Of a stretch of DNA of 61,014 nucleotides, positions 6,992 through 29,012 are shown in pieces. This stretch comes from Gemmatimonadaceae bacterium (GTDB lineage Bacteria; Gemmatimonadota; Gemmatimonadetes; Gemmatimonadales; Gemmatimonadaceae), in NCBI GenBank assembly GCA_036274195.1, contig DASUGD010000178.1:1-61014 (forward strand), read 5' to 3'. The position numbers and the translations under genes are program-made. The notes below the pieces were generated by a model that had not been told where the DNA came from, made no database searches, and was given only the letters and a program-made list of their open reading frames with translations. Every line of letters begins with the position of its first letter. Positions within the stretch are counted from its first letter, which is position 1.

Positions 6992-8599
6992 TCATCGCGT
7001 TCCCTGCTCGCGCTGCCGCTCCGCCGCCGCCAGCCATTCGGCCATTCGCTGATCGTTCGCCCCGTACTGTGCCCAGCCGCGTGCCGTGCAGTTCCAGCGA
7101 TAGTCTTTGATCGACATGTCGATGCCGCGATCGATGAGGTACTGCATCGACGGGTAGTTGTCGTGGAACACAAGCTCGTGCAGGATGCTGGCCGGCTCGT
7201 GCGAGCTCCACGTCGTGTTGATGTCCGCGCCACGCTCCAACAGGAAATCGGCCACGTCGAAGTGGCGGTTGATGACGGCGAAGGCGAACGCCGAGTCGAG
7301 AATGCGTTGCGCATTCGGCGCGCCGGGCGGGAGCTCGTTCCGCGCCTGTGGGAGGTTGTACGGATAGTGGTGCTCGAGATCGCCCAGCACCGACGCTCCG
7401 GATGGATCGAACCAGCGCTGCACGCTCGTCAGGTCTCCGGTGCCCGCCGCGTGTGGCAGGTCGTCCGGCAACGGCCAGATACGGGTGAGCAGGGGAAGCA
7501 GGTGCGGCTTCTCGTAGGTCAGTGCGAACTCGATTGCCTGCGATGGCGGCGGCGGGTGGCGCCGACCTAACGCGGGGTCGAGGTCGAGCAGGGCGACGAT
7601 GAGCTCACCGCGATCGCGCATGACGGCGCGCTCGATCATCCCCACCTGAAATCCCACGTGATCGTCGTCGAGCAGCCACCGGTCGTGCTGCAACCCGGTC
7701 ACGAACCCCGCGAGTTCGCCATCCGCGATCGCGCGCAGGACCTGCTCCATGACGAACACCTGCCACGGCCCGGTCGGGTTGGCGTGCGAGAAGGCGAGCG
7801 AGCGTCGGTCGATGAGGTACCGAATGAAGTCACGGCGACCGACGCCCGCATCCACGTTCTGGCCAAGCTGTGCGTCGAGTGCAATGGCGCGGTCGAGCAG
7901 CACCGACGCAACTGCTTCATGCTGGAAGCTGCACGCGCACAGGAACGCGTCGTTGACCTCGGCGAGATCGTGCCGGTTGTGGCCGAGCGAGGACCGGACC
8001 GCGTCGAGATCGCCGAGCGCGGCGGAGTACTCGAGCGTGTCGGGCAGGAGGCTCTTGCGCCGAAACAGCTGCAGCAGTCCCCGGGCGCGGGAGGCAACGA
8101 CGCTCTCGGGCACGGATGGCAGCACGACCGCACCGGCATCGATCAGCACCTCCGCACATTCCGCGCGCGTGAAATCCCGCTCTCGCTGCGGATCGAAAGC
8201 GTCGCCATAGGCGCTCGCGGCGAATCCCAGCAGGCTCTGGTTGCCGTCAGTTCCCGTCCAGGAGAGCAGCTGCGGAAAGTCTCCCAGGAGCTTCGTTAGG
8301 CGCTCGACGTCATTGTCGTGGATGGCACGTCGCGCCTGGATCGCTGCCCATTCCAGCCCATTGCCGAGACGTTGGCTGACTTCGGCAATGAGATCGTGCC
8401 AGCCGTCGAAGCCGTATTCACGCGCGATCACGAGCTGCGCGTTGCGCTGTGTCAGCGGCAGGCGGACTTTCGGCAGCTGCGCTCGCACGCGGGTGACGGC
8501 GGCCGCGTCACCCGCTGCGACGTCGCGTGCAAGCTTCTTGGCCTGTTTGCGGAGGGACTCGAGCGACGGACGCTCGGGGAGGGACTTGGACGCGGTCAT
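6992..8599 (-). CDS. Ankyrin-repeat domain protein
   Basis: 535 aa ORF with no competing frame. Repeated LIDAGA.. and LLERGADIN ankyrin-like units. Confidence 0.7.
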   Translation of the reverse strand: MTASKSLPERPSLESLRKQAKKLARDVAAGDAAAVTRVRAQLPKVRLPLTQRNAQLVIAREYGFDGWHDLIAEVSQRLGNGLEWAAIQARRAIHDNDVERLTKLLGDFPQLLSWTGTDGNQSLLGFAASAYGDAFDPQRERDFTRAECAEVLIDAGAVVLPSVPESVVASRARGLLQLFRRKSLLPDTLEYSAALGDLDAVRSSLGHNRHDLAEVNDAFLCACSFQHEAVASVLLDRAIALDAQLGQNVDAGVGRRDFIRYLIDRRSLAFSHANPTGPWQVFVMEQVLRAIADGELAGFVTGLQHDRWLLDDDHVGFQVGMIERAVMRDRGELIVALLDLDPALGRRHPPPPSQAIEFALTYEKPHLLPLLTRIWPLPDDLPHAAGTGDLTSVQRWFDPSGASVLGDLEHHYPYNLPQARNELPPGAPNAQRILDSAFAFAVINRHFDVADFLLERGADINTTWSSHEPASILHELVFHDNYPSMQYLIDRGIDMSIKDYRWNCTARGWAQYGANDQRMAEWLAAAERQREQGTR

Positions 8600-9056
8600 T
8601 GCTACCTCCTTTCATGATCGCCTGTATCCCGCTGAAGACCAGGCTGAAAGAAGGTGCATGCGCACGCTATTCAGACCGAAACAGGTGGGAGTGTTCCCTT
8701 GCCGCGGGTAGGAGGCGCCCTGTCAGCGCTCTGCCAGCAGTATCGAGAGACGCCGCTTCGGTGTCAACGGTGTCCCAGTGCGCACGGAGCAAATTTGCGA
8801 ACATCGGTGGAATCGATGTTCGAAATCTGCGTTAGGTCTTGCCGTTGCCGTTCCGATGGTCGGAATCCATTACTGTTCGGAATGGCAACAACAGCGGCAC
8901 ATCGCTGCCTATTGGGGATTCAGCACCGCCAGATGAGCGCGCCGCCAACGCGCTGCGCATCGACCTGCACCGGCGGTTCCTCGGAGTGTGAAAGCCAGCC
9001 CATGGCTTTCGCGGGTGGCCACCGAGTGCGAGAATAACTTCTGCAACGACTGACTT

Positions 9057-9647
9057 GTGGAGGCCACCGTGAAGAAGATCCAGGTTCAGGGCGTTCACCA
9101 CACCACCATCGTGGGATCCACAAAACAGAGCGCGATCGACTTCTGGTCCGGCGTGCTCGGCATGCCATTCGTGCTCGAGCAACCGAACCTCGGCAAGCCC
9201 GACGAGAATCACCTCTACTTCGATCCGGGCGATGGACGGCTGCTCACGGTCTTCACCAACGAGGGCCGCAACGATGCCCGACGTCCGGCACCGCGAGAGG
9301 TCGGGTGCGTGGAGCACCTCGCGTTCAACGTCTCGCGCGCCACGTTCACGCTCGTACCAGGGCGCCTGCGCGAACGCGGCATCGAGTTCATCCAGCGCGA
9401 CCGCGGCTTCATGGACTCGATCTACCTGCAGGACCCGAACGGACTCAAGGTCGAGCTCGCGTGCTACAAGTTCGAGACGCCCGAGGGCTTTCGCGACGTC
9501 GATGTGCTGATGACCGCGCAGCGGCTGCGCGTCGAGCGGGGCGATCACCACATCACCGAAGAGCACCTTGCCGACGCGATCGAGTCTCTGTTGTCGACAC
9601 GCGACCGGCTCGATCCCGCCGAAACGCCGGAACCGGCGGTACGTTAG
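9057..9647 (+). CDS. VOC family protein (glyoxalase/bleomycin-resistance/dioxygenase fold)
   Basis: 196 aa. HHTTIVG...FW..VLGM..V and a second half-domain EHLAFNV..., typical of the duplicated beta-alpha-beta-beta-beta VOC fold. Confidence 0.8.
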   Translation: MEATVKKIQVQGVHHTTIVGSTKQSAIDFWSGVLGMPFVLEQPNLGKPDENHLYFDPGDGRLLTVFTNEGRNDARRPAPREVGCVEHLAFNVSRATFTLVPGRLRERGIEFIQRDRGFMDSIYLQDPNGLKVELACYKFETPEGFRDVDVLMTAQRLRVERGDHHITEEHLADAIESLLSTRDRLDPAETPEPAVR

Positions 9648-9898: not shown

Positions 9899-10297
9899 AT
9901 GCCAACGTCCACCATTCAGCGCATCAACCCACCAACCCTTCCCACGCCACCGGGCTACAGCCAGATCGCCGTGGCATCCGGCGGCTCTTTGATCGTCATC
10001 GCCGGCCAGGTCGCGCTGGACAAACAGGGCCAGGTCGTCGGGCTCGGGGACTTCGCGTCGCAAGCGACGCAGGTGTTCCGTAACCTCATCGCCGCGCTCG
10101 ACGCCGCCGGCGCCAACCCGCGCCACCTCGTCAAGCTCACCACGTTCGTGACCGATCTCTCCCACCTTCCGGCCTTTCGTCAGGTTCGCGACCAGTTCCT
10201 GGATGCGGAGCACCCACCGGCGAGCACGCTGTTGCAGGTGTCGCGGCTCTTTCGGCCGGAATTCCTCCTTGAAGTCGAAGCAATGGCCTATCGATGA
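9899..10297 (+). CDS. RidA/YjgF/L-PSP family reactive-intermediate deaminase
   Basis: 132 aa. PPGYSQIAVASGGSLIVIAGQVALD...HLVKLTTFVTDL...LQVSRL matches the RidA family pattern. Confidence 0.9.
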   Translation: MPTSTIQRINPPTLPTPPGYSQIAVASGGSLIVIAGQVALDKQGQVVGLGDFASQATQVFRNLIAALDAAGANPRHLVKLTTFVTDLSHLPAFRQVRDQFLDAEHPPASTLLQVSRLFRPEFLLEVEAMAYR

Positions 10298-10677
10298 CGA
10301 TCACCGAGCTTGCCGGCGCCACGGGCGTGTCGAAGCACACGCTGCGCTACTACGAGCGAGTAGGGCTCGTCCCACTCGTCGACCGCGATCCCTCGAGCCG
10401 CCATCGCCGCTACAGCGACGGCCACATCCGGTGGATCGAATTTCTCCGCGACCTTCGCGCGTGTGGCATGCCCATCCGGGAGATTCGCGCGTACGCGCGA
10501 CTCGTGGCCAAGGGCGACAGCACCTGGGCTGCGCGCCAGGCGATGCTGGCCACGCATCGCAGCCACGTCGTGGCGACCATTGCCGCGCTGCAGCGGCACC
10601 GCGCGCTGCTCGACAGAAAGCTCCGCGCCGGCTGTGCCCCCGGTGACCTGAAGCCCAAACACGACTCGGCCCGTTAG
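10294..10677 (+). CDS. MerR family transcriptional regulator
   Basis: 127 aa. N-terminal HTH ITELAGATGVSKHTLRYYERVGL. ATGA overlap with the upstream RidA gene. Confidence 0.9.
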   Translation: MTITELAGATGVSKHTLRYYERVGLVPLVDRDPSSRHRRYSDGHIRWIEFLRDLRACGMPIREIRAYARLVAKGDSTWAARQAMLATHRSHVVATIAALQRHRALLDRKLRAGCAPGDLKPKHDSAR

Positions 10678-10707
10678 GCATCGCAGGGCAGCAATGCCTA
10701 ACGGGCC
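10668..10707. terminator. Hairpin built from an inverted pair of the CGTTAGGC motif; contains the MerR gene stop codon
   Basis: ggcccgttaggcat-cgcagggcagca-atgcctaacgggcc: a 14-bp perfect stem between convergent genes. No U-tract follows, so intrinsic-terminator function is uncertain. Confidence 0.6.
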
Positions 10708-10766
10708 GAGGTCGAGCGTGGCCAGCGCGGGAGGTCGGCTGACCATTGCTCGACGATCTATGACCG

Positions 10767-11360
10767 CTACTGCGCGTTCGCGCAGCTTACCTTGGGGTTC
10801 CACAACCCGAACATGCCGCTCGGGTTCGGGCGCCATCCCCAGATGTGCAGCGCCCACACGTTGAGCGGCGGGCCGAGCGCCGTGAACGGCTGACCGAGCA
10901 GCGTCGGTGCCGTCGCCGACAACGAGAGCGGGACGATGTAGTCCACGCCCACGAGGTTCATCTGGCCGTTCGGGCCAGGCTCGTACATCACGAGCTCGGG
11001 ACGCAGGAGCTCCACGTTCGCGTCCACGAGGTCGGGGTTGAGGTAGTGGAACCCTTGTGCACCATCCGGCGACGCCGCACAGCCGACCGGGAACTGCTGG
11101 GTGTACCCTCCGCCGCCTTGGGACGTCGGACGCGTTGCGATCGCGATGTCGTGGAATCGCTGCGTCACTTGCTTCACTTGCGCGATGGCCTGCTTCTGAG
11201 CGGGCGTCAGCTCACCGTTGTTGAAGGTGCGAGCCATGCCCGCATGAAGGGCGTGAGCAGTGGGCACCTGGGCGGCCGTAGGGGGTGCCTCCGGCGTTGG
11301 GGAACATGCCGCGGTCAGGGTGACCGCAGTGACTGCGAGGAACAGGTGGCGCTGGCGCAT
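10767..11360 (-). CDS. Hypothetical lipoprotein
   Basis: Start trimmed to MRQRHLFLAVTAVTLTAAC (lipobox), which removes the overlap with the divergent sigma gene. No recognisable domain. Confidence 0.65.
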   Translation of the reverse strand: MRQRHLFLAVTAVTLTAACSPTPEAPPTAAQVPTAHALHAGMARTFNNGELTPAQKQAIAQVKQVTQRFHDIAIATRPTSQGGGGYTQQFPVGCAASPDGAQGFHYLNPDLVDANVELLRPELVMYEPGPNGQMNLVGVDYIVPLSLSATAPTLLGQPFTALGPPLNVWALHIWGWRPNPSGMFGLWNPKVSCANAQ

Positions 11361-11568
11361 GTCGAGCTCCGGGGTTGTGGGCCGAGAGTACCACGAGAGC
11401 GAGGGGGCCATCCGTAGAAGCCGAAAACTCCGCCGAACCGGCTCATCGATCCGGCTCATCGCCCGCCACCCGACCTTGCCTGGCCGTCAAGCCGGCCCGT
11501 ATGATCTTCGCGCACCCGCCTTCCTGTCGCGCAACCACACCCAGCGCGCCGGAGCGCCCGGAGGCCCG

Positions 11569-12152
11569 ATGGCTCCCTCGCACGAGAACACCCCCACCCC
11601 GCCCGACGATGACCAATCGGCCTCGCTCGCAGGGCCGAGCGAGGCCGGAAAGGAATTGGACGACGTCTTCCCGGCGGTCTATGAGGAGCTCAAGCGGGTC
11701 GCGCACCGGCATCTGCGCGGCGAGCGAACGGAGCACACGCTGGGCACGACGGCTCTCGTGCACGAGGCCTACCTCGAGCTCGCCAAGCTCGACAACGTCC
11801 GCTGGCCGGGACGTCCGTACATGCTCGCCGCGGCGTCCAAGGCCATGCGGCGGATCCTGATCGACTACGCGGTCGCGCGGCGCGCGCAGAAGCGCGGTGG
11901 CGGCGCCGAGGCCGACCCTCTGGACGATGCGGTCGCCATGGCGGTGTCGCGCGGCGACGAGCTGTTGGCGCTCGACGAAGCGCTCGAGCGCCTCGCCGCG
12001 GTCAACGAACGATACGGCCGCGTGGTCGAGTGCCGGTTCTACGGCGGCATGAGCGTCGAGGAGACGGCGGAGGCGTTAGGCACGTCACCGGCCACGGTGA
12101 AGCGCGACTGGACCATGGCGCGCGCGTGGCTCAACCGCGAGCTCGGCGACGG

Positions 12153-12156
<4 letters not shown>
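11569..12156 (+). CDS. ECF-type RNA polymerase sigma factor (TIGR02999/ECF43-like)
   Basis: Start trimmed to MAPSHEN. Region 2 ELDDVFPAVYEELKRVAHRHL...ALVHEAYLEL, region 4 RVVECRFYGGMSVEETAEALGTSPATVKRDW. Stop overlaps the start of the downstream kinase (ATGA). Confidence 0.85.
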
Positions 12157-13193
<1,037 letters not shown>

Positions 13194-14315: not shown

Positions 14316-14876
14316 GTGACGACCCTCTTCCTCTGGTGTGGTGTCCTCGGTGGTGCAGTGCTCATCCTCCAGCTCGTCGCTGGAGTCTTCGGGTTGGCGG
14401 GTCTGCACGACCATGACCTGTCGCACCCCCACGAGGGAAGCGAGGGATTGAGCCTCCTCTCCATTCGCGCGGTTGCCGCGGGCCTTGCTTTCTTCGGAAT
14501 CGCTGGCCTCGCCGCGCGCTCGCTCGGAGCGCCTGTGGCGCTCGCGGTGGCGCTGGCTGCAGGCTTCAGTGCCGCCATCGGTGTCACCGCCATGATCCGG
14601 GTCTTCCGCCGCTTCGAGCGCGATGGCACACTCGCACTCGAGTCCGCGGTCGGAAGTACGGGGACTGTCTATCTGTCGGTTCCGGGGCGACGGTCCGGTG
14701 TGGGCAAGGTCCACATCACGGTCCAGAACCGGCTCGTCGAGTGCCGGGCGGTGACCACAGACGATTCGCTCCCCACTGGCGCGCCGGTTCTCGTGATCGA
14801 TCTCGAAAGCAACGATACCGTGGTCGTCGTCAGGAATCCCATCCTCTTGAGCGAGGTTTCCAATGCTGCCGTTTGA
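14316..14876 (+). CDS. NfeD family membrane protein
   Basis: 186 aa with hydrophobic N-terminal TM helices and a C-terminal OB-fold-like region (GKVHITVQNRLVECRAVTTDDSLPTGAPVLVIDLESNDTVVVV). Directly upstream of, and overlapping, an SPFH/flotillin gene, which is the classic arrangement. Confidence 0.8.
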   Translation: MTTLFLWCGVLGGAVLILQLVAGVFGLAGLHDHDLSHPHEGSEGLSLLSIRAVAAGLAFFGIAGLAARSLGAPVALAVALAAGFSAAIGVTAMIRVFRRFERDGTLALESAVGSTGTVYLSVPGRRSGVGKVHITVQNRLVECRAVTTDDSLPTGAPVLVIDLESNDTVVVVRNPILLSEVSNAAV

Positions 14877-16608
14877 GCTGGCCGCCGTCATCCAGGATCC
14901 CGGCCTCGGCATCTCCCCCCTCACCCTCGCGGGTCCGGTGCTCGGGGCCGTCGTGGTGCTCGGAATGCTCATCCTGTTTGCGTCGCGCTACCGGCGATGC
15001 CCGGCGAACCGCGTATTGGTGATCTCGGGCAAGGTGGGTGGCGAGGGGAGCGCGCGGTGCATCTCGGGCGGTGGCGCGTTCGTGTGGCCCGTTATCCAGG
15101 AGTACGCGTACCTGTCGCTCGAGCCCATCCAGATCGACATCCCGCTCAAGGACGCGCTCTCGTTCGAGAACATCCGCGTTGCCGTCCCGAGCGTGTGCAC
15201 GGTGGCCATTGGCACCGAAGACGAAGTGCGCCAGAACGCAGCGATTCGCTTGTTAGGCCTCCCCCACGATCAGATCAAGCGCCAATCGCAGGACATCATC
15301 TTCGGACAGTTCCGGCAGGTGATCGCGTCGATGAAGATCGAGGAGATCAACCGTGACCGCGAAGCGTTCCTCCACCGCATCCAGTCATCGCTCGAGCCGG
15401 AGCTGAAGAAGATCGGCCTCGTGCTCATCAACGTGAACATCACCGACCTGAAGGACGAGTCGGGGTACATCGAAGCCATCGGGAAGAAGGCGGCGGCGAC
15501 CGCCGTCCAGCAGGCCCGTGGCGATGTGGCCGAACAGGAGAAGCTGGGCGAGATCCGCGTGGCCGAAGCGGAACGCGATCGCAGCGTGCAGGTGGCGAGC
15601 GCCACCAAATCTCGCGAGATCGGGATGCGCGAGGCGGAGCGCGACAAGCTCGTTAGGGTGGCCGAGCTCGAGAAGGAGCAGAAGTTCGGCGAGACGGCGG
15701 CGGCACTGGAGCGCGAAGCGCTCATCAAGCAGAAACAGCGAGAGCAGGCGGTGCTCGTCGCGGAGCTCGACAAGGAACAGCGGGTCGGGGAGCAGCGAGC
15801 GGCGTTCGAGCGCGACGCGCAGGTGAAGGATGCCGAGCGTCAGCGCCGCGTCGCGGTGGCAAGTGCCGAAGCGGCGGCGATCGCCGGCGAGGCCGAATCG
15901 CAGGCAGCGATGGCCGCCGCCCGCGCGCAACTCTCGGTGCGAGAGGCCGAGGCCTACCAACTCTCCGAGACGAAGAAGCGCGAGGCGGAAGCGGCGGTGA
16001 AGGAAGCGCAGAACCGTGCCATGGCCAAGGCAGCGATCGCCGAAGCCGAGCGCGTCGAAGCCGAGCGCCGCGCCGCGGTCGAAGCTCCGGCGCGGGCCGA
16101 GAAGGCGAAAACGATCGTCGAAGCCGAGGCGGCCGCGGAGCGGCGTCGCATCGAAGCCGAGGCCGAGGCGCGAGCGATCTACATCAAGCTCGAAGCCGAA
16201 GCGCGCGGCCAGTACGAGATCCTCGCGAAGAAGGCCGAAGCCATGAAGGAGCTCGTGCAGGCGGCCGGAGGCGCCAAGGAGGCGTTCCAATTACTCATGG
16301 TCGAGCACCTCGACCAGCTGGCCGAGACGTCGGCGAAGGCGATATCGAACATCAAGTTCGATAAAGTGGTCGTGTGGGACTCGGGCAACGGAGGGGCGAG
16401 CGCGTCGGGATTCTTGCAGAGCATGGCCAAGACGTTGCCGCCCATGATGCACGTGCTTCGCGACATCGCGGACGTCGAGCTTCCGGGGCTCGGCAAGTTG
16501 GCGCCCGATGTGGACGGTACGTCGGGTGAACGCCCGCTCGTTGCCGGCGATGACTCGGCGGTGACGCGCCGGGTCTCGGCCGAACGGGATGCGGTGGCAG
16601 GAACGTAG
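14863..16608 (+). CDS. Flotillin-like SPFH/band-7 domain protein (YqiK/FloA-like)
   Basis: 581 aa. N-terminal TM segment, SPFH domain (RVLVISGKVGG...VWPVIQEYAYLSLEPIQIDI), then a long E/A/R/K-rich coiled-coil region. Confidence 0.9.
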   Translation: MLPFELAAVIQDPGLGISPLTLAGPVLGAVVVLGMLILFASRYRRCPANRVLVISGKVGGEGSARCISGGGAFVWPVIQEYAYLSLEPIQIDIPLKDALSFENIRVAVPSVCTVAIGTEDEVRQNAAIRLLGLPHDQIKRQSQDIIFGQFRQVIASMKIEEINRDREAFLHRIQSSLEPELKKIGLVLINVNITDLKDESGYIEAIGKKAAATAVQQARGDVAEQEKLGEIRVAEAERDRSVQVASATKSREIGMREAERDKLVRVAELEKEQKFGETAAALEREALIKQKQREQAVLVAELDKEQRVGEQRAAFERDAQVKDAERQRRVAVASAEAAAIAGEAESQAAMAAARAQLSVREAEAYQLSETKKREAEAAVKEAQNRAMAKAAIAEAERVEAERRAAVEAPARAEKAKTIVEAEAAAERRRIEAEAEARAIYIKLEAEARGQYEILAKKAEAMKELVQAAGGAKEAFQLLMVEHLDQLAETSAKAISNIKFDKVVVWDSGNGGASASGFLQSMAKTLPPMMHVLRDIADVELPGLGKLAPDVDGTSGERPLVAGDDSAVTRRVSAERDAVAGT

Positions 16609-16657: not shown

Positions 16658-18832
16658 CTATCTCGCGCCCCGCCACGACGGTCTGGCTACATCCGCCTGG
16701 ACCACCAGCCTCACGTACATCCCTGCCGCCGCATGCCCGGGCACTGCACATGCGATCAGATAGTTCCCCGCGCGACTCGCGCTGAACCGAAAGACCTGGC
16801 TCCGCCCGGACCCGACGCCCGCTTCGGCACTCGCACTCTCCGCGCCCGCAAAGACCGCCCCGGGGATCGTGAGCGGGATCGTGTCCCGCGACGCGATCAC
16901 GCGCGCGGAGTGCGGCGCGGCGTCCGCGTTGTGCAGGCGAACCTCCACGGTCCAGCCTAACGGGACAACGAACGTCTCCCCACCGTTTGCGGCCGAGTTG
17001 AAGCTCATCGCGCGGCTGTCCGCGTCGACACCGATCCAGGCCACACGCTGCGCGCCGGAATAGGCGAGACGCGAGCCGACCCGCGTTGCGCCGTCCGGCG
17101 GCCAGGTCTCCGCGCGATCCGGCGTCGATGAGGGTATCGAACGCTCGGCCGCCATCATCGGTGCCGCGCGATCGCCGCCAAGACCGAAGACGATCAGCGC
17201 CGATCCGCGAGACTCCGAGTAGCGACTTCCGGCGGCCACCACGGCGATGAACTGTTCGCCGTCCAGCTCGAAGCTCACTGGCGGGGCGTTCACCCCCGCA
17301 CCACAGAAAAACTCCCAGAGCGGACGACCAGTGCGCGCGTCGTACGCGCGAAACCAACCGTCGTTCTCTCCCACGAACAGCAGCCCGCCAGCCGTGGCGA
17401 GCGCGCCACTCCACAGCCAGCCCGTGCGTCGCTGCCACGCAATCTTGCCGGTCGACGGACGGATCGCGCTGATGGTGCCGTACGTCGATTCCGCCTCCAC
17501 AGGCTCCAGGCGCCCACCGGTCCAGATCTCGCCCTTCTGCGCCTCCTGTTCGGCCCGCGTTAGGGTGAACACGAAGTGCATCCCGAGCACGTACAGGAGA
17601 CCCGTCGACGGCGAGTACGCGGACGGCGGCCAGTTCGCACCGCCAGCCGGACCGGGCGCCGTAACGACGCCTTCCTTCGTCGGCACGGCGAACAGGTTGC
17701 GCTGCGGCACGAACGGCTCGGAGCGACGCACCAGACGACCGGTCGAGGCGTCGAGCACGTACACCCATCCCATCTTGCTCGGAACGAGCAGCAGCTTCCG
17801 ATTCCCGTCGGGAACGATCACCGGCGGCGTCGCGAGGTCGTAGTCCCAGACGTCGTGCGGGACAGCCTGGAAATACCACCGCATCTTTCCGGTCGCGACG
17901 TCGAGCGCCACGACGGAGCCAGTGTAGAGATTGTCGCCCGGGCGGTTTCGGCCGTCATTGCTCGGCGCCGGATTGCCGACCACGACGAACAGCGTTCCGG
18001 ACTCCGCGTCGAACGCCGGCTGTGCCCACACCGGCCCGCCGCCGGTTCGCCAGCTCTCCGCAAATGTCGCGGAATCCCTACGCTCCTGCGCGATGTCTCT
18101 GCCTAACGATTCGCCGGTCGGCGCGGTCGCCACCCACTTGCCCCACCAGCCGCCTTCCTCCGGCGACGGGATCGCGTACCATCGCCACAACCGCGCACCA
18201 GTCGCCATGTCGTACGCCGTGACGCTGCCGCGGGTCGGGAATTCCCCGCCCGACGTGCCCACAATGACACGGTCGTTCACGATGACCGGCGCCATCGTTA
18301 TGCTGTACCCCGAGTCGGGGTCGGCGTTGACCGCTTCCCACCGCACGGCCCCGGTGGCCGCGTCGAGCGCGATGACGCGCGCGTCGATCGTTCCGAGGAA
18401 CACGGCGCCGCCCGACACGGCGACGCCCCGGTTCACCGGGCCACAACACGGCTTGCCCTTGTCGATCGTCGGTTCGTATCGCCAGAGCTGCTTCCTGGTT
18501 CGCAGGTCGAACGCCGTGACGACGTCATAGTCGGACGACACGTACAGGCGGCCGTCGAGGACAATCGGCGTCGCTTCGGCACCCGAGTTCGGGTGCGCCA
18601 TCTGGATCTGCAACAGTGCGCGCGGTGCCAGCCGCGCGACGTTGCCCGGGGTCAGCTGACGGAGGGGCGAGTAGCGCTGGTTATGGTAGTCGTGCCCGTT
18701 GTGTGGCCACTCGCCCGGCGAGGGTCGCGCGAGATCGCGTGGAGGCGTCGACGGGATTGTCGTCGGCTTCACCACTTGGGCGCGAGCGACAGCGGGGAGC
18801 AGCGCGAGGCTGGCGATCAGGCGAAGCCGCAT
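16658..18832 (-). CDS. PQQ-dependent alcohol dehydrogenase-family quinoprotein with a C-terminal cupredoxin (type-1 copper) domain
   Basis: Start trimmed to MRLRLIASLALLPAVARA (signal). Eight PQQ beta-propeller blades (..DLRTRKQLWRY.., ..DAATGAVRWE.., etc.) and the vicinal GKPCCGPVNRG Cys-Cys. The C-terminal ~150 aa carries HNADAAPH...CAVPGHAAAGM (C-x4-H-x4-M), which is azurin-like. Confidence 0.85.
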   Translation of the reverse strand: MRLRLIASLALLPAVARAQVVKPTTIPSTPPRDLARPSPGEWPHNGHDYHNQRYSPLRQLTPGNVARLAPRALLQIQMAHPNSGAEATPIVLDGRLYVSSDYDVVTAFDLRTRKQLWRYEPTIDKGKPCCGPVNRGVAVSGGAVFLGTIDARVIALDAATGAVRWEAVNADPDSGYSITMAPVIVNDRVIVGTSGGEFPTRGSVTAYDMATGARLWRWYAIPSPEEGGWWGKWVATAPTGESLGRDIAQERRDSATFAESWRTGGGPVWAQPAFDAESGTLFVVVGNPAPSNDGRNRPGDNLYTGSVVALDVATGKMRWYFQAVPHDVWDYDLATPPVIVPDGNRKLLLVPSKMGWVYVLDASTGRLVRRSEPFVPQRNLFAVPTKEGVVTAPGPAGGANWPPSAYSPSTGLLYVLGMHFVFTLTRAEQEAQKGEIWTGGRLEPVEAESTYGTISAIRPSTGKIAWQRRTGWLWSGALATAGGLLFVGENDGWFRAYDARTGRPLWEFFCGAGVNAPPVSFELDGEQFIAVVAAGSRYSESRGSALIVFGLGGDRAAPMMAAERSIPSSTPDRAETWPPDGATRVGSRLAYSGAQRVAWIGVDADSRAMSFNSAANGGETFVVPLGWTVEVRLHNADAAPHSARVIASRDTIPLTIPGAVFAGAESASAEAGVGSGRSQVFRFSASRAGNYLIACAVPGHAAAGMYVRLVVQADVARPSWRGAR

Positions 18833-18954
18833 GGTCGGTCGCGGAGGGGATGCGGGCGAATATGGGACGGCCACCTGCCAAGTCGCAACGTCGGTTGCGG
18901 CGTTCAGGCCCCGCGCTAACTTCGCGTCATCCCCTTCAAGTTCCCGGAGAGCCA

Positions 18955-19824
18955 ATGGACACGCGCACGAGCGACGGCAAGAAAGAGGTGGGAGTCTACC
19001 TCGGCCTCACGTTCGGACTGAGCGCCATCTTCTGGGCCCTCATCATTTCCGCCGGCAGCCTCGGCGTGCACGGTGGGGCCTACGTGTTGGCGCTCATGTG
19101 GTGTCCCGGCGTGAGCGCGCTCATCACCCGCCTCATCTTCCAACGCAACGTTCGCGGCGAAGGTTGGGGGCTCGGCCAGCCTCGCTGGCTGGTGCTCGCG
19201 TACGTGCTGCCGATCATCTACGCGACGGTCGTCTATGGTCTGGTGTGGCTCACGGGTCTCGGTGGCGTCGACCTCGGCCGGTTCACAACGCCGGTCGTCA
19301 CGTTCCTGGTCATGGGTACGATCCAGAACGTGATGGCGGCGACGGGAGAGGAGCTCGGTTGGCGCGGCTTCCTCGTCCCGATGCTCATGCGCTCGAAGTC
19401 CTTCAAGCAGACGGCGATCATCAGCGGGATCACGTGGGCCGGGTGGCATGTTCCGCTGATCATCGGCGCGGACTACAACGGTGGCACGCCGCCGTGGTAC
19501 TCGGTGCTCTGTTTCGCCGTGATGGTCGTGGCGATGGGCTTCCCCTTCGCGTGGCTGCGATTGCGCTCGGGCAGCGTGTGGCCGGCGGCGCTTCTGCACG
19601 CGTCCCACAACCTGTTCGTGCAGGCGTTCTTCGATCGGGTGACGGTAGACACGGGGCCGACCAAGTGGCTGACGGGCGAGTTCGGCGCGGGGCTCGCGCT
19701 GGCGTTCATCGCTATCGCCTGGATCTTCTGGCGCGCGCGCGTGTCGGTGGAAGAGCCTAACGAAGCCGGCGTGGGCCGCGGCGCCGCCACTCCGATGGCG
19801 GACACGGTGCCCGTCGGGCGCTGA
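18955..19824 (+). CDS. CPBP family intramembrane glutamic endopeptidase (CAAX protease-like)
   Basis: Start trimmed to MDTRTSDGKK. Multiple TM helices, EELGWRGFL (EExxxR) and HASHN (HxxxN) motifs. Confidence 0.85.
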   Translation: MDTRTSDGKKEVGVYLGLTFGLSAIFWALIISAGSLGVHGGAYVLALMWCPGVSALITRLIFQRNVRGEGWGLGQPRWLVLAYVLPIIYATVVYGLVWLTGLGGVDLGRFTTPVVTFLVMGTIQNVMAATGEELGWRGFLVPMLMRSKSFKQTAIISGITWAGWHVPLIIGADYNGGTPPWYSVLCFAVMVVAMGFPFAWLRLRSGSVWPAALLHASHNLFVQAFFDRVTVDTGPTKWLTGEFGAGLALAFIAIAWIFWRARVSVEEPNEAGVGRGAATPMADTVPVGR

Positions 19825-19958: not shown

Positions 19959-22595
19959 ATGCTTCGTCCGGGTTTGCGGTGGTTATCCTCCGCTGCGCTC
20001 GCTGCCCTCGTCGCTGTGCCCGCGATCGCACAAACGCCTAACGGTCGCCTGAGCGGGGTGATTCGCGACTCGTCAGGCACCGGCCGGGAAGGCGTCACGG
20101 TGCGGGCCACGAACGCGGCCACCGGCGCAACGCGAAGCGCGACAACGCGCGGTGACGGCACCTACACCATCTCGGATCTGTTGCCCGGCACGTACACCGT
20201 ATCGGCCTCGCTGATAGGCTTCCGACGGGCGACGCGGTCCGGCGTGCCGGTCCAGGGTGACGCGACGGTCGACCTCGTGCTCGCCGCGCTTCCCCTGCAG
20301 GCCATCACCGTCACGGCGACGCTGCGCGAGGAGGAGCTCTCCGAGGTTCCGTTTTCCATCGCCGCACCCACCGCGAAGGACCTGCGCGAGCGCGGTGCGA
20401 CGAATATCGAGGAGATCGCGGCCAACGTGGCCGGTTTCAGTGTGCAGAATCTCGGCCCCGGGCAGAGCCAGGTCGCCATCCGCGGCGCGTCCGCCGGCCA
20501 GATCGCGCGCGACCAGCCCGGCGTCAAAGAGCAGGCGGGCGTCTATCTCGACGACACGCCAGTGTCGCTGTCGCTTTTCACACCCGACCTCGACCTGTTC
20601 GATGTCGCACGCGTCGAAGTGCTGCGCGGTCCGCAGGGCACGCTGTTCGGCTCGGGGTCGCTCGCGGGCACGGTGCGCTACATATCGAACCAGCCGGAGC
20701 TCGGCCTGCGTAGCACGTTCGGTGAGGTCGGGTCGAGCCAGGTCTTGAACGGCGGCTTTGGCGCCAACGTGAAGGTCGGCGCCAACCTGCCCATCGGCGA
20801 CCAGGCGGCGGGACGGGTGGCGCTCTACTACAACCAGCTCGCCGGTTACATGGACGCGGTACAGCCCAACCTCACCCTCCAGAAGAACGTCAACAGCGGA
20901 TCACGCACGGGCGTACGGGCTGCCTTCCGGTATACGCCGAACGATCGCTTCACCATCACGCCGAGGGTGGTCTACCAGACCGTTCGCATGAACGGCTGGA
21001 ACCGCATCGACGCCTACAACATCCTGGCGAACCCGTACACGACCTCGCGCCCGGCGGTGACGTTAGGCGAACGGCAGCTGTTCACGCAGATCCCCGAGCC
21101 GTTCACCGACAACTACACGCTGGGCGATCTCAATATGCGGTACGACTTCGGCAAAATGAACCTGACGTCGATCACGTCGTACAGCTACCGAGACATTCTC
21201 GTCGTGCGCGATGCCGGCGCGCTCACGTCGAGCATCACCGGCGGCAGCATCGGCCTGCCTGAAGCGGTCTACACGCTCAACGCGCCGCTCAACGACGCGA
21301 CGCACACGCACGTCGCGACGCAGGAGCTGCGTCTTTCCGGAAGCGCCGACCGCTTGCGGTGGCTCGTGGGCGGGTTCTTCGGCAAGGCGCTTCGCGACTA
21401 CGGCCAGACGCTCCTCGTGTCTGGCTTCGAGGCGGCGACGAAGATTCCGACCGAGGGGCTTCGCGCCCCGAAGGATGTCCTCTTCTTCTCCGACCTCGCG
21501 TACGATCTCAAGCAATCCGCGCTGTTCGGCGAGGCGACGTACAGCGTGACGGACAAGCTCAACGTCACGGCCGGTCTGCGATACTACGATTTCAGCGAGG
21601 ACCGCCAGCAGGTGTTCGACGGCATCTTCGCGAACGACAACACCGGCACGTCGGTCGTGTCCACGCCCGGGAAGACGAGCGCGGACGGTCTCGCGCCTCG
21701 CTTCATCGTGAGCTACAAGGCCACGCCGACGCTGACGCTCAACGCGCAGGCCTCGGAGGGCTTCCGGCTCGGCGGCATCAATGATCCGCTCAACGTCCCA
21801 CTCTGCACGCCGCAGGACCTCGCTACGTTCAGCGGCCGTGACTCGTGGGACAACGAAACGGCGTGGAACTACGAGCTCGGCGCAAAGGCGACGTGGATGG
21901 GTGGCCGCGCCTCGCTCAACGTGTCGGGGTTCTACATGGACATTCGCGACCTGCAGATGATCGTCACGGCCGGCTCGTGCTCGTCGCGCCTGGTGTTCAA
22001 CACCCCGAAGGCGATGAGCGCGGGAGCCGAGATCGAATTGACGGCCGCGCCTAACAGGTACGTCGACTTCGCCGTCTCCGGCACGTTCAACAAGGCCGAG
22101 CTGCGGTCAACCCTGACGTCGACGGCCGAAAACGGCGACGTGAGCGTCGTATCCGGGATCGAGGACGGCAACCGGCTGCCGAGCGTGCCTGAGCTTCAGG
22201 TTGCCGCGGCGGTAACATTCCACAAGCCACTCAAGCGCGGGGCCGACGGGTTCTTCACCACGACGTACAATCACGTGGGTTCGCGGTACACGCAGATCGA
22301 TGACGAGGCGACGGGCTTCGGCACGGTCGATCTCAACTCGTTCGCGCCGAACACGATTGGCGGGCCGCTCACGCAATCGACGTTCACGTTCAATCCGCTG
22401 CTGCCGGCGTACGACCTGGTCAATCTGCGCGTTGGCGTCACCCGGGCGAGCTGGGAGGCGGCGTTGTTCCTCAACAACGTTACGGACGAGCGGGCGCTGC
22501 TCGCGCTGGACCGTGAGCGGGGCACGCGGGCGCGCGTCGGCTATCTGACGAATCAGCCTCGCACGTTAGGCTTGAGCCTGACCTTCAACTACTAG
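19959..22595 (+). CDS. TonB-dependent receptor with N-terminal carboxypeptidase-regulatory-like domain
   Basis: 878 aa. Signal peptide, CarbopepD_reg-like segment (GVIRDSSGTGREGVTVRATNAATGATRSATTRGDGTYTISDLLPGTYTV), plug, long beta-barrel, C-terminal LTFNY. Confidence 0.9.
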   Translation: MLRPGLRWLSSAALAALVAVPAIAQTPNGRLSGVIRDSSGTGREGVTVRATNAATGATRSATTRGDGTYTISDLLPGTYTVSASLIGFRRATRSGVPVQGDATVDLVLAALPLQAITVTATLREEELSEVPFSIAAPTAKDLRERGATNIEEIAANVAGFSVQNLGPGQSQVAIRGASAGQIARDQPGVKEQAGVYLDDTPVSLSLFTPDLDLFDVARVEVLRGPQGTLFGSGSLAGTVRYISNQPELGLRSTFGEVGSSQVLNGGFGANVKVGANLPIGDQAAGRVALYYNQLAGYMDAVQPNLTLQKNVNSGSRTGVRAAFRYTPNDRFTITPRVVYQTVRMNGWNRIDAYNILANPYTTSRPAVTLGERQLFTQIPEPFTDNYTLGDLNMRYDFGKMNLTSITSYSYRDILVVRDAGALTSSITGGSIGLPEAVYTLNAPLNDATHTHVATQELRLSGSADRLRWLVGGFFGKALRDYGQTLLVSGFEAATKIPTEGLRAPKDVLFFSDLAYDLKQSALFGEATYSVTDKLNVTAGLRYYDFSEDRQQVFDGIFANDNTGTSVVSTPGKTSADGLAPRFIVSYKATPTLTLNAQASEGFRLGGINDPLNVPLCTPQDLATFSGRDSWDNETAWNYELGAKATWMGGRASLNVSGFYMDIRDLQMIVTAGSCSSRLVFNTPKAMSAGAEIELTAAPNRYVDFAVSGTFNKAELRSTLTSTAENGDVSVVSGIEDGNRLPSVPELQVAAAVTFHKPLKRGADGFFTTTYNHVGSRYTQIDDEATGFGTVDLNSFAPNTIGGPLTQSTFTFNPLLPAYDLVNLRVGVTRASWEAALFLNNVTDERALLALDRERGTRARVGYLTNQPRTLGLSLTFNY

Positions 22596-22597
22596 GT

Positions 22598-22720
22598 GGG
22601 GACATGGGGACTGGGGACTGGGAACTCGGCCAGGATGTTATTAGCACTGATGAAACCTCCACGGCGGTAGAAGGCTCCCGGCCGAGTCCCCAGTCCCCAG
22701 TCCCTGGTCCGCAGTCCCTC
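22598..22720. repeat. Inverted heptamer-array element (GGGGACT)n ... (AGTCCCC)n overlapping the 5-prime end of the FAD-oxidoreductase ORF
   Basis: ggggactggggactggg at ~22607-22623 pairs with gagtccccagtccccagtccc at ~22685-22705. Confidence 0.9.
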
Positions 22721-23929
22721 ACGCGTCGCCGATTCGTCGCGTCAGCGGTCGCTGCCCCGTTCGTGCTCCGCTTCGGAGTGCGACGACTGACAGCCGACCA
22801 CGTCGTCGTGGTTGGCGCGGGCGCGTTTGGAGGCTGGACGGCGCTCACGCTCCTGCGCGCCGGCATGCGAGTCACACTCGTGGACGCGTGGGGGGCGGGG
22901 AACTCGAGGGCCTCGTCAGGCGGCGAGACGCGCGTCATCCGCAGCGTCTACAACGGCAACGCGCTGTACACGCAGATGGCCGCCCGGGCCTTCACGCTGT
23001 GGCGCGAGGCCGAACAGCAGTGGAAGCGGCAGGTGCTGTTCCACACCGGCGCGCTGTGGATGTGCGAGACCGACGACTCCTACGTGCGCCGCTCCATCGA
23101 ACCGATGAACGCCGTCGGCCTGTCGGTGGAAGAGATGGCTCCGACCGAGGCGGCACGACGGTATCCACAGATGGGCTTCCGTGATGTAAAAACCGCGTTC
23201 TTCGAGCCGGAGGCCGGATATCTCACGGCGCGGGCCGCCTGCGAGCTCGTGCGCGAAACGATCGTTCGGGAAGGCGGGACGTACACGCAGGCTTGGGTCC
23301 GCCCCGGCGCTCCCGCTGGTGGTCGCCTAACGCGCGTCACGCTGTCGGACGGCCGCGCGCTCGACGGCGACCGATTCGTCTTCGCGTGCGGGCCGTGGCT
23401 GGGACAGCTCTTCCCGGACGTCGTGGGCCGGCGCATCGTGGCGACACGACAGGAGGTCTTCTTCTTCGGCACGCCGGCCGGCGACACGCGATTCGACTCG
23501 GGGACGCTGCCCGTGTGGGTCCACGTGGGTGAGCGGCTCGTCTATGGCATTCCAAGCCACGAGCGACGGGGGCTCAAGCTGGCGGACGACACCGCCGGAC
23601 CCGAGGTCGACCCGACGACGCAGCTGCGTGTGCCGAGCGCCGAGGGCACGGCGCGCGCCCGTTCGTTCGTGGCAAAGCGCTTCCCTGTCCTGGCGGATGC
23701 CCCGATCGTCGAGGCGCGTGTGTGCCAGTACGAGGCGTCGACGGACGGGAACTATCTCGTCGACCGGCACCCGCAGCTCGAGAACGTGTGGCTCCTCGGC
23801 GGCGGCTCGGGTCACGGGTTCAAGATGGGCCCTGCATTCGGCGAGCACGCCGCGGCGGTGATTCAGGGGCGAGCCGCGGTGAATCCGCTATTCGCGTACG
23901 CGCGTCTCAAGCCGCGACCTGTCCCCTAA
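22604..23929 (+). CDS. FAD-dependent oxidoreductase (DAO/sarcosine-oxidase-beta-like) with Tat signal
   Basis: RRRFVASAVAAPF twin-arginine motif, VVVVGAGAFGGWTALTLLRAGMRVTLVD Rossmann motif. The only in-frame ATG (22604) lies inside an inverted heptamer repeat. Confidence 0.8.
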   Translation: MGTGDWELGQDVISTDETSTAVEGSRPSPQSPVPGPQSLTRRRFVASAVAAPFVLRFGVRRLTADHVVVVGAGAFGGWTALTLLRAGMRVTLVDAWGAGNSRASSGGETRVIRSVYNGNALYTQMAARAFTLWREAEQQWKRQVLFHTGALWMCETDDSYVRRSIEPMNAVGLSVEEMAPTEAARRYPQMGFRDVKTAFFEPEAGYLTARAACELVRETIVREGGTYTQAWVRPGAPAGGRLTRVTLSDGRALDGDRFVFACGPWLGQLFPDVVGRRIVATRQEVFFFGTPAGDTRFDSGTLPVWVHVGERLVYGIPSHERRGLKLADDTAGPEVDPTTQLRVPSAEGTARARSFVAKRFPVLADAPIVEARVCQYEASTDGNYLVDRHPQLENVWLLGGGSGHGFKMGPAFGEHAAAVIQGRAAVNPLFAYARLKPRPVP

Positions 23930-27788: not shown

Positions 27789-29012
27789 CTAGTGCTTGGC
27801 GCTATCTGGGTACACGCGGATCCAATGATTCCGGCCCTGCACGCGCTCCATCTCGCCCTCGCGGTCCGAGACCACGATCTTCGACGTCTGCAACGGCATA
27901 TGGCAGTCCACGCAATGCCCGACGATCGCGCGGCCACGCGTGGCGAACAGCGGGCAGCTCTGCTGCTGGTGACACGTTAGGCACCGTCCCGACAGCTCGA
28001 CGACGTCGCGCTGTTGGCGATGGACGTCATGACAGGTGGTGCACGTCATTTGCGACGACGTGAAGCACCTGCTGCGCGAGAGCAGCGCGACCTGGTTCGC
28101 GTGAACATCCACGAACTCGTCGGACGCCTTCGGAACGAGCTTCACGTACTCCTCGAGCGGTTTCCCCGCGACGTACGTGAAGGTTGGCTCCTGCGGGTCG
28201 CCGATGCCGCCATGGCACTGCGCGCACACGTCCATCTTCCGCTCGCGACTCAGTGTCGCCGGGTTCACGATCGACCGATCACGCGCGAGATAGCGGACCA
28301 GCGAACGCTGGCGCGAGACGTGCTGCTTCCCCGCCGCATGGCATCGCTCACACGTAATGCCAAGGATCGCGCTGTCGGGCCGATACTGGTTGTCGACCGT
28401 CAGGCCAGGGACCGACTCCATCCAGGTCGCGTGACATTCGAAGCAGCGAGGTGCGACCGTGCGGTTGAAGCTCGCCCTCGGATCGATCCCAACTCGCCCG
28501 GGGCTGCCGAGCCACGTGTTCAGCCCCGTGTAGTACGACACCGGCAGCTGGAACAGCCGGTCGCCGGACCAGTAGAGAAAGCTCTGTCCCTTTCGCCCTG
28601 AGCCGCCGACGTACGCGATGCGCTCGGTGCGACTCGTCGAGTCGGCGCCCGTGCCAACCACCAGGGTCTGATAGAAGCCGGTCGAGTCGGCGTCCATGCG
28701 GAAGTGCACGTCGGGCCGGTCGGTGCGCAAAACGTTGTAGCCCTTGCTGAAGTTCCCAAGGACCGACTGGCGCGTCGGAAGCCGCATCGTCAGGCGGTGC
28801 GCCGTCTGCTCGAAGGTCGCCTTGTCGCGATGGCAGGAGATGCAGGTGGAATCACCGACCGCCGTGGCCGTTCTCACCGGTTGCGGCCACTCCCGCGCCG
28901 CGCGCCGCACGTTCTTGAGAAGTAGGACGTAGCCACCGAACAGCACCGCCGCGAAAGCGGCGAGCCACGGGTACGGAGACCTCCAGTTGAGGGCTGGGCG
29001 ATTGTCCGGCAT
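27789..29012 (-). CDS. Multiheme c-type cytochrome (7 CxxCH motifs), membrane-anchored
   Basis: 407 aa. N-terminal TM helix. CISCH, CFECH, CERCH, CAQCH, CTTCH, CLTCH, CVDCH. Confidence 0.85.
   Translation of the reverse strand: MPDNRPALNWRSPYPWLAAFAAVLFGGYVLLLKNVRRAAREWPQPVRTATAVGDSTCISCHRDKATFEQTAHRLTMRLPTRQSVLGNFSKGYNVLRTDRPDVHFRMDADSTGFYQTLVVGTGADSTSRTERIAYVGGSGRKGQSFLYWSGDRLFQLPVSYYTGLNTWLGSPGRVGIDPRASFNRTVAPRCFECHATWMESVPGLTVDNQYRPDSAILGITCERCHAAGKQHVSRQRSLVRYLARDRSIVNPATLSRERKMDVCAQCHGGIGDPQEPTFTYVAGKPLEEYVKLVPKASDEFVDVHANQVALLSRSRCFTSSQMTCTTCHDVHRQQRDVVELSGRCLTCHQQQSCPLFATRGRAIVGHCVDCHMPLQTSKIVVSDREGEMERVQGRNHWIRVYPDSAKH

Follow-up and report, generated by a model that had tools for sequence, protein, structure and literature searches.

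Which molecule takes up the electrons of a pyrroloquinoline quinone (PQQ)-dependent dehydrogenase that carries a blue-copper domain on its own polypeptide chain? This question is raised by a gene in a 61,014-nucleotide stretch of DNA from a soil Gemmatimonadaceae bacterium (contig DASUGD010000178.1 of assembly GCA_036274195.1; the whole stretch is referred to as the window), whose product joins an eight-bladed PQQ β-propeller to a C-terminal cupredoxin (Table 1). To our knowledge, the characterised eight-bladed PQQ dehydrogenases all pass their electrons to haem, be it in cytochrome cL, XoxG, cytochrome c550 or a fused cytochrome c, and the blue copper proteins that we know of in these chains appear only one step further downstream, for example azurin after alcohol dehydrogenase (ADH) IIB. 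Domain architecture, fold, conservation of cofactor residues and, in other genomes, a linkage between the genes of the two modules are established here for the new protein, which probably represents a self-contained periplasmic 'quino-cuproprotein' dehydrogenase with a built-in copper acceptor.

The predominant part of the protein folds into the PQQ propeller, which matches the Pfam family PF01011 with an E-value of 1.9e-84 (284.9 bits, cut-off 26.7). By sequence, its nearest solved relatives are PedH (PDB-ID: 6zcv; E-value 3e-86) and then ExaA (1flg), with the quinohaemoprotein ADHs 1kb0, 1kv9 and 1yiq also among the best. The structures of XoxF and MxaF give lower scores than PedH and ExaA, the bit scores being 293 and 283 for PedH and ExaA and 244 and 239 for the XoxF structures. 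An AlphaFold2 (AF2) model of the full-length chain has a mean predicted local distance difference test (pLDDT) score of 77, and its best Foldseek matches are the quinohaemoprotein ADHs 1kv9 and 1kb0 together with PedH; E-values against solved structures of PQQ-dependent ADHs and methanol dehydrogenases range from 1e-41 to 1e-30. The co-occurrence in one protein of a propeller with the GKPCCG motif and a C-terminal domain with copper ligands, on which a preliminary description of this locus had been built, is therefore confirmed by the matches to PF01011 and PF06525, which go far beyond chance, and by the location of the motifs.

Conservation of individual residues was judged in an alignment of 27 full-length homologues, reaching down to 46% identity, and motifs were counted over the 63 fused clusters found among the best 120 matches. 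The vicinal cysteines, which in the methanol/ethanol dehydrogenase family form the ring disulphide over PQQ, belong to a set of only four in the 724-residue protein (residues 129, 130, 510 and 695), and the haem-binding motif CXXCH occurs nowhere. Glu199, Asn281, Asp323 and Asp325 of PedH, numbered by counting along the 6zcv chain in the alignment, are taken by us to be its four lanthanide ligands, and all four have counterparts in the fusion protein (Table 1). Asp332 is invariant, Asp330 is found in 26 of the 27 homologues, and the W-D-x-D motif is kept in 61 of the 63 fused clusters. Presumably, Asp330 acts both as catalytic base and as metal ligand, while Asp332 is the extra aspartate of lanthanide-dependent PQQ dehydrogenases; calcium enzymes reportedly have Ala, Ser or Thr at this position. 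Residue 353 is a lysine, presumably as in the quinohaemoprotein ADHs, where methanol dehydrogenase has Arg331. The dehydrogenase half thus appears to be fully equipped for catalysis and to bear the signature of lanthanide enzymes, which had been overlooked in the preliminary description. Because the extra aspartate is present, a lanthanide is somewhat favoured as the metal of the propeller.

The C-terminal domain belongs to the sulfocyanin/rusticyanin type of cupredoxins. Residues 602–718 match PF06525 (SoxE, sulfocyanin) with an E-value of 4.3e-17 (62.4 bits, cut-off 21), and the domain modelled alone by AF2 together with 15 homologues reaches a pLDDT of 93.3 and a predicted template modelling score of 0.90. 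A Foldseek comparison of this model with the PDB places rusticyanin (1gy2/1rcy) on top, with an E-value of about 2e-6 and a template modelling score of 0.58; further top matches are auracyanins and the N-terminal tethered cupredoxin of the three-domain nitrite reductase of Hyphomicrobium, all with a probability of 1.0. The expectation that the domain adopts a cupredoxin fold was accordingly borne out, and so was the expected conservation of its ligands: His641, Cys695, His700 and Met705 are invariant among the aligned homologues, as are Ser642 and Gly704. The motifs N-x-D-x-x-P-H-S and C-x4-H-x4-M are each present in 63 of 63 fused clusters.

The domain had initially been called azurin-like. 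Its type-1 copper ligand set agrees with this description, but an affinity to azurin does not hold: the azurin/plastocyanin family PF00127 scores 18.3 bits, under the cut-off of 21.2, and no azurin is found among the top 50 Foldseek matches, which include rusticyanin, auracyanin, nitrite reductase, nitrous oxide reductase and CuA domains. The copper site of rusticyanin is made up of His85-Ser86 and Cys138-x4-His143-x4-Met148 (PMC10654088), and rusticyanin (1rcy) and sulfocyanin SoxE share with the fusion protein the fold, the family PF06525 and this His-Ser and Cys-x4-His-x4-Met layout. The gap between the first histidine and the cysteine measures 54 residues here and 53 in rusticyanin (His85 to Cys138), and an N-terminal extension strand is common to both. 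Yet by profile score the domain is an orthologue of neither, since the equivalog models for sulfocyanin (TIGR03094) and rusticyanin (TIGR03095) give 49.9 and 28.6 bits against thresholds of 168.4 and 146.7, respectively. Sequence identity is about 22%, and in acidophiles rusticyanin and sulfocyanin occur as single-domain carriers, free or anchored in the membrane, which act in the oxidation of iron or within the SoxM oxidase supercomplex.

Propeller and cupredoxin are connected by a segment of about 30 residues that looks like a flexible tether. The pLDDT of the model falls below 50 over residues 553–574, the segment corresponds to a gappy, unconserved block of the alignment (columns 617–680), and the distance from the end of the propeller to the His motif varies between 81 and 113 residues across the fused clusters.

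At the other end of the chain, the minus-strand open reading frame (ORF) extends from 16658 to 18955, and the methionine at 18832 is the start used by the homologues in the alignment. The 41 further codons upstream, up to a TTG (18833–18955), overlap the region of a divergent CAAX-protease ORF, do not resemble a signal peptide and are absent from the homologues, so that the methionine at 18832 is likely the translation start. By inspection, the N-terminus that begins there has the make-up of a Sec signal peptide, so that a periplasmic location is expected; the N-termini of all aligned homologues are similarly hydrophobic. The source genome has a GC content of about 66%. An identical protein is held by NCBI (P0001) under the generic name 'MAG TPA: PQQ-binding-like beta-propeller repeat protein [Gemmatimonadaceae bacterium]', a consequence of a TIGR03075 score that stays just under the curated cut-off.

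The 63 fused clusters, defined at 90% identity, are 46–100% identical to the query, and all of them that bear a taxon name belong to the Gemmatimonadota. In agreement, when GTDB species were scanned with one genome each, in a motif-limited search, 12 species proved to have the fusion, and all of them are of this phylum. A profile of the copper domain alone retrieves about 2000 clusters at 50% identity, mostly free proteins of 160–300 residues, which places the domain in a large family of presumably periplasmic cupredoxins, a minority of them fused. In a rough neighbour-joining tree of the propellers, calculated without an outgroup, fused members are interleaved with unfused ones of 550 residues. 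This interleaving suggests, as an indication only, that the copper domain may have been gained or lost repeatedly. Beside the two unfused relatives that were checked, neither a cupredoxin nor a cytochrome gene was found.

The protein P0065, at first sight the closest unfused relative, was rejected as such because it is the same fusion broken by frameshifts; it was not counted as a split form. At L083:5001-7286, a fusion homologue with 66% identity shows two frame changes between propeller and cupredoxin and has been called as two genes of 560 and 113 residues. Either the gene has decayed to a pseudogene or the breaks stem from an error in the assembly of long reads.

Independent support for a functional coupling of the two modules comes from genomes in which they are encoded separately. 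In five species of Gemmatimonadaceae (L013, L014, L019, L020 and L036), a free SoxE-type cupredoxin gene adjoins a gene for a 550-residue PQQ dehydrogenase, on the same strand and 55–200 nucleotides upstream (for example at L019:6308-8842). These cupredoxins have a hydrophobic leader of their own and the same copper ligands as the fusion protein; the dehydrogenases are 46–47% identical to the fused propeller and carry the Cys-Cys pair as well as W-D-L-D. In these pairs the cupredoxin comes first, whereas in the fusion it comes last. One of the split-form genomes is a metagenome-assembled genome (MAG) labelled Gemmatimonas aurantiaca. Since some genomes have the pair fused and others have it as neighbouring genes, a Rosetta-stone signature, dehydrogenase and cupredoxin are likely to be functionally coupled. 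The preliminary proposal of a blue-copper acceptor fused to its dehydrogenase is thus upheld as far as the fusion is concerned and, through the split-gene species, supported with regard to joint working, while the transfer of electrons between the two is inferred. Fused, split-operon and orphan forms coexist within one clade.

Outside the Gemmatimonadota, a C-terminal SoxE domain is found on a very different PQQ propeller, with 25–28% identity, in Chloroflexota (L037, L056 and P0182), the loci deriving from Anaerolinea and Caldilineaceae MAGs. In P0182 the propeller has no Cys-Cys pair. A PQQ propeller and a SoxE domain are likewise combined in a partial protein from an Alicyclobacillus MAG. 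In two of the Chloroflexota loci the fusion gene is followed by a gene for a COX2-cytochrome c protein, namely at 9957-10919 behind the fusion at 6132-8360 in L037 and at 8598-9527 behind the fusion at about 6297-8402 in L056, where propeller and cupredoxin matches lie in one frame of an interrupted ORF. The truncated locus L063, which preserves the cupredoxin end alone, shows the same adjacency of cupredoxin and COX2. Moreover, in P0229, a protein of 790 residues from a JGI metagenome contig of 274 kb, one polypeptide comprises SoxE, COX2 and cytochrome c. These adjacencies and the P0229 fusion point to a terminal oxidase as the probable electron destination for this cupredoxin family. A parallel is provided by sulfocyanin in the archaeal SoxM supercomplex. 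Ahead of its SoxE domain, P0229 has a long N-terminus of low complexity, and its copper loop reads C-GVPG-H-AANG-H, with a histidine in place of the expected axial methionine.

These results can be combined into a mechanism. After Sec-dependent export to the periplasm, the propeller would bind PQQ and a metal ion, most likely a lanthanide. An alcohol-type substrate would be oxidised at Asp330, reducing PQQ to PQQH2, from which two electrons would pass singly to the type-1 Cu(II) of the cupredoxin, kept at the propeller by the flexible tether. In this way, the cupredoxin would substitute for the cytochrome c domain of type II quinohaemoprotein ADHs or for the separate cytochromes cL or XoxG. 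The resulting Cu(I) would give up its electron to the aerobic respiratory chain, the most plausible site being a haem-copper terminal oxidase or a point close to it. Occupancy by PQQ and copper, the identity of the metal, the direction, distance and route of electron transfer and the class of substrate are to be read as predictions. Blue copper proteins are known to take electrons from quinoproteins: azurin is the physiological acceptor of type II quinohaemoprotein ADHs and takes electrons from ADH IIB of Pseudomonas putida HK5, and amicyanin takes them from methylamine dehydrogenase.

Several observations weigh against this reading. The score of the propeller against TIGR03075, the family of methanol/ethanol PQQ dehydrogenases, is 447.7 bits and thereby below the curated cut-off of 480.05, and the AF2 models carry no cofactors. 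The D-x-D motif predicts the use of a lanthanide but proves nothing. Given the interleaved unfused members without an adjacent cupredoxin, the enzyme family can do without the copper domain. In addition, no conserved operon partner was found, neighbours being common only to the closest relatives L001 and L002, and the 61-kb window contains no genes for PQQ biosynthesis, XoxG/XoxJ, cytochrome oxidase or other partners.

Some of these points would also suit a propeller that is an empty PQQ-like scaffold without catalytic function, similar to BamB or to the 'empty quinoprotein' families of Acidobacteria. The cupredoxin would then be the sole redox part and might serve, for example, as a general periplasmic carrier that docks via the propeller. 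Apart from the missing pqq genes, such a scaffold would fit the second-best NCBIfam match, TIGR04528 ('acido-empty-quinoprotein group A', 343 bits), the merely generic public name of the protein, and the distant Chloroflexota-type fusion P0182, which has neither the Cys-Cys pair nor the PHD-W-D motif. However, the TIGR04528 score is far under its cut-off of 650 and is exceeded by that of TIGR03075, and the PQQ- and metal-site residues tested are invariant or nearly so at 46–90% identity, which is hard to explain without catalysis. Furthermore, the TonB-dependent PQQ importer PqqU is reported to be widespread in Gemmatimonadetes (PMC12124388), so that missing pqq genes would not mean a missing cofactor. 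A non-catalytic propeller is therefore considered quite improbable. If the propeller works, it could still depend on calcium, which would leave the remaining mechanism unchanged. Neither lanmodulin nor lut-type genes were seen in the window, and the neighbouring TonB receptor matches no known importer of lanthanides or PQQ; but the alignment of the invariant Asp332 with Asp325 of the lanthanide-dependent PedH, together with the near-universal W-D-x-D motif, makes a calcium enzyme an unlikely alternative.

A different role has also to be considered for the copper domain, which might serve copper handling or resistance in a CopI-like manner, or the oxidation of Fe(II) or Mn(II), a task suggested for rusticyanin and sulfocyanin of acidophiles, instead of accepting electrons from PQQ. 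There is a weak match to CopI (E-value 0.12), a related fusion occurs in the Alicyclobacillus MAG, and the families of rusticyanin and sulfocyanin are tied to Fe(II) oxidation (PMC10654088). The CopI match, however, is not significant, with 12 bits against a cut-off of 280, and the domain is devoid of the His/Met-rich motifs of copper trafficking. Moreover, the full catalytic set of an alcohol dehydrogenase is retained in the sequence, and the cupredoxin is coupled specifically to PQQ dehydrogenases, fused or adjacent, in three phyla. Such a function is thus highly improbable, and a quino-cuproprotein dehydrogenase remains the reading preferred here.

Comparison with known systems revealed that the type II quinohaemoprotein ADHs (QH-EDH of Comamonas testosteroni, 1kb0; ADH IIB and IIG of Pseudomonas putida HK5, 1kv9 and 1yiq) share with the fusion protein the plan of propeller, linker and C-terminal one-electron domain. 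They, too, are periplasmic single chains with a Cys-Cys pair. Their C-terminal domain, however, is a cytochrome c with a CXXCH motif, whereas the new protein carries a cupredoxin in its place; they bind Ca2+ and are without the extra aspartate, which is Asp332 in the fusion protein; and they hand their electrons to free azurin, whereas the blue copper is here located in the same chain. Since both the CXXCH motif and the haem domain are missing, the fusion protein stands outside that class and is its functional copper counterpart. Of the lanthanide-dependent type I PQQ ADHs PedH and ExaF, PedH (6zcv) aligns with it at the Cys-Cys pair and at all four lanthanide ligands including D-x-D. PedH, about 31% identical to the fusion protein, is a single-domain enzyme of about 590 residues that uses a separate cytochrome c550 and has no cupredoxin.

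The XoxF/XoxG systems, including XoxF3 of Gemmatimonadetes and Acidobacteria (PMC10875860), belong to the same superfamily as the fusion protein, likewise bear the lanthanide Asp signature and share its phylum. They keep xoxG, encoding a cytochrome c, and xoxJ nearby, whereas neither is found at the fusion gene; because of this, and because XoxF structures score lower, the protein does not represent a XoxF system. Methylamine dehydrogenase and amicyanin form another pair of a quinoprotein and a dedicated cupredoxin, but the cofactor is tryptophan tryptophylquinone, the fold is a different one and amicyanin is a separate protein. Finally, in the three-domain nitrite reductase of Hyphomicrobium denitrificans (2dv6 and 6tfd) a cupredoxin is likewise fused as a built-in carrier; unlike in the fusion protein, it is N-terminal and acts as the electron donor of a copper enzyme.

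No description of a PQQ-cupredoxin fusion was found in the literature, including surveys of lanthanide and PQQ diversity that cover Gemmatimonadetes, in a search in which subscription journals were thinly covered. As far as could be searched, the architecture is therefore undescribed, though visible to automated domain annotation. If the proposed mechanism is correct, the first electron acceptor of a PQQ propeller can be copper. The protein would offer a one-chain system for electron transfer from PQQ to copper, possibly with a lanthanide in the same chain. It would also reveal how a part of the respiration is wired in Gemmatimonadota, a phylum that is abundant in soil but has hardly any cultured members. 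Self-contained fusions of quinoproteins with mediators are sought for direct-electron-transfer biosensors and biofuel cells, and the series of fused, split and orphan forms in a single clade is an experiment of nature from which the reasons for tethering redox partners may be learned.

A wider proposal is put forward tentatively, its chances being judged a little short of even. It holds that Gemmatimonadota possess lanthanide/PQQ quino-cuproproteins in which a tethered, high-potential copper site of the rusticyanin type replaces every cytochrome c up to the terminal oxidase, that fused, split and orphan forms have interconverted repeatedly, and that the arrangement arose independently on unrelated propellers in Chloroflexota and Bacillota. 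In that case, the alcohol-oxidising electron chain of the periplasm would be free of haem, and these proteins would be the first enzyme class that joins lanthanide, PQQ and copper in one chain.

Table 1. Position of the fusion gene and of its domains, motifs and predicted ligands within the window.
Feature	Coordinates	Strand	Basis
PQQ-dehydrogenase/cupredoxin fusion gene, complete, 724 residues plus stop codon	16658-18832	minus	ORF and translation
Predicted Sec-type signal peptide MRLRLIASLALLPAVARA, cleavage site A-R-A followed by Q	18779-18832	minus	sequence inspection
Eight-bladed PQQ β-propeller dehydrogenase domain, residues ~37-552	17177-18724	minus	PF01011, TIGR03075, 6zcv, Foldseek
Vicinal Cys129-Cys130 in GKPCCG (residues 126-131)	18443-18448	minus	aligns with the Cys-Cys pair of PedH; invariant in 27 homologues
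Glu197, predicted metal ligand, equivalent to PedH Glu199	18242-18244	minus	6zcv alignment; invariant
Asn287 in GNPAP motif, predicted metal ligand, equivalent to PedH Asn281	17972-17974	minus	6zcv alignment; invariant
W329-D330-Y331-D332 motif	17837-17848	minus	aligns with W-D323-F-D325 of PedH
Flexible Ala/Pro/Ser-rich linker, residues ~553-582 (~30 residues)	17087-17176	minus	AF2 pLDDT, alignment
C-terminal cupredoxin of sulfocyanin/rusticyanin type, residues ~583-724 (~140 residues)	16661-17086	minus	PF06525, model, Foldseek
His641-Ser642, His641 being the predicted N-terminal type-1 copper ligand	16907-16912	minus	His641 and Ser642 invariant
Copper loop Cys695-AVPG-His700-AAAG-Met705 (CAVPGHAAAGM, residues 695-705)	16718-16750	minus	invariance, motif count

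Within the window the fusion gene stands alone, convergent with a flotillin gene and divergent from the CAAX-protease gene, and it appears to be transcribed on its own. Scans for promoters and terminators around the gene yielded nothing above background, no gene for a cytochrome c or a XoxJ-type protein flanks it, and the other fused loci lie in unrelated gene contexts. An NfeD-like ORF and a gene for an SPFH/flotillin protein of 581 residues (14316-16608) are situated between the fusion gene and a GNAT-glyoxalase gene. In the closest relatives L001 and L002 the GNAT-glyoxalase gene directly follows the fusion gene, so that the flotillin pair seems either to have been inserted in this genome or to have been lost from L001/L002.

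On the plus strand, a gene for a TonB-dependent receptor is followed after 8 nucleotides by that for a flavin adenine dinucleotide (FAD)-dependent amine oxidase (19959-23929). The receptor (19959-22595) has an N-terminal carboxypeptidase-regulatory-like domain, and a TonB receptor of the same domain type is also found near the fusion gene of L082. Considered as an importer of PQQ or lanthanides, it was rejected: the PqqU model gives 20.5 bits against 1200, and the best matches in the PDB are generic plug-domain ones. The amine oxidase is of the N-methyltryptophan/sarcosine oxidase type (219 bits, cut-off 257).

Separated from the fusion gene by 9 kb and by GH30 and FG-GAP/ASPIC genes, an ORF on the minus strand (27789-29012) encodes a multihaem c-type cytochrome of about 406 residues with weak matches to the DmsE/GSU2203 decahaem families; no link between this cytochrome and the dehydrogenase was found. 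On the opposite side, at 11260-13193, a gene for an extracytoplasmic function (ECF) sigma factor shares about 125 nucleotides with the beginning of a Ser/Thr protein kinase gene, a pairing that is conserved in L001 and L002. The window contains three Ser/Thr kinases, including those at 5703-6968 and 48142-50397, and kinases flank the PQQ genes in L019 and L080 as well.

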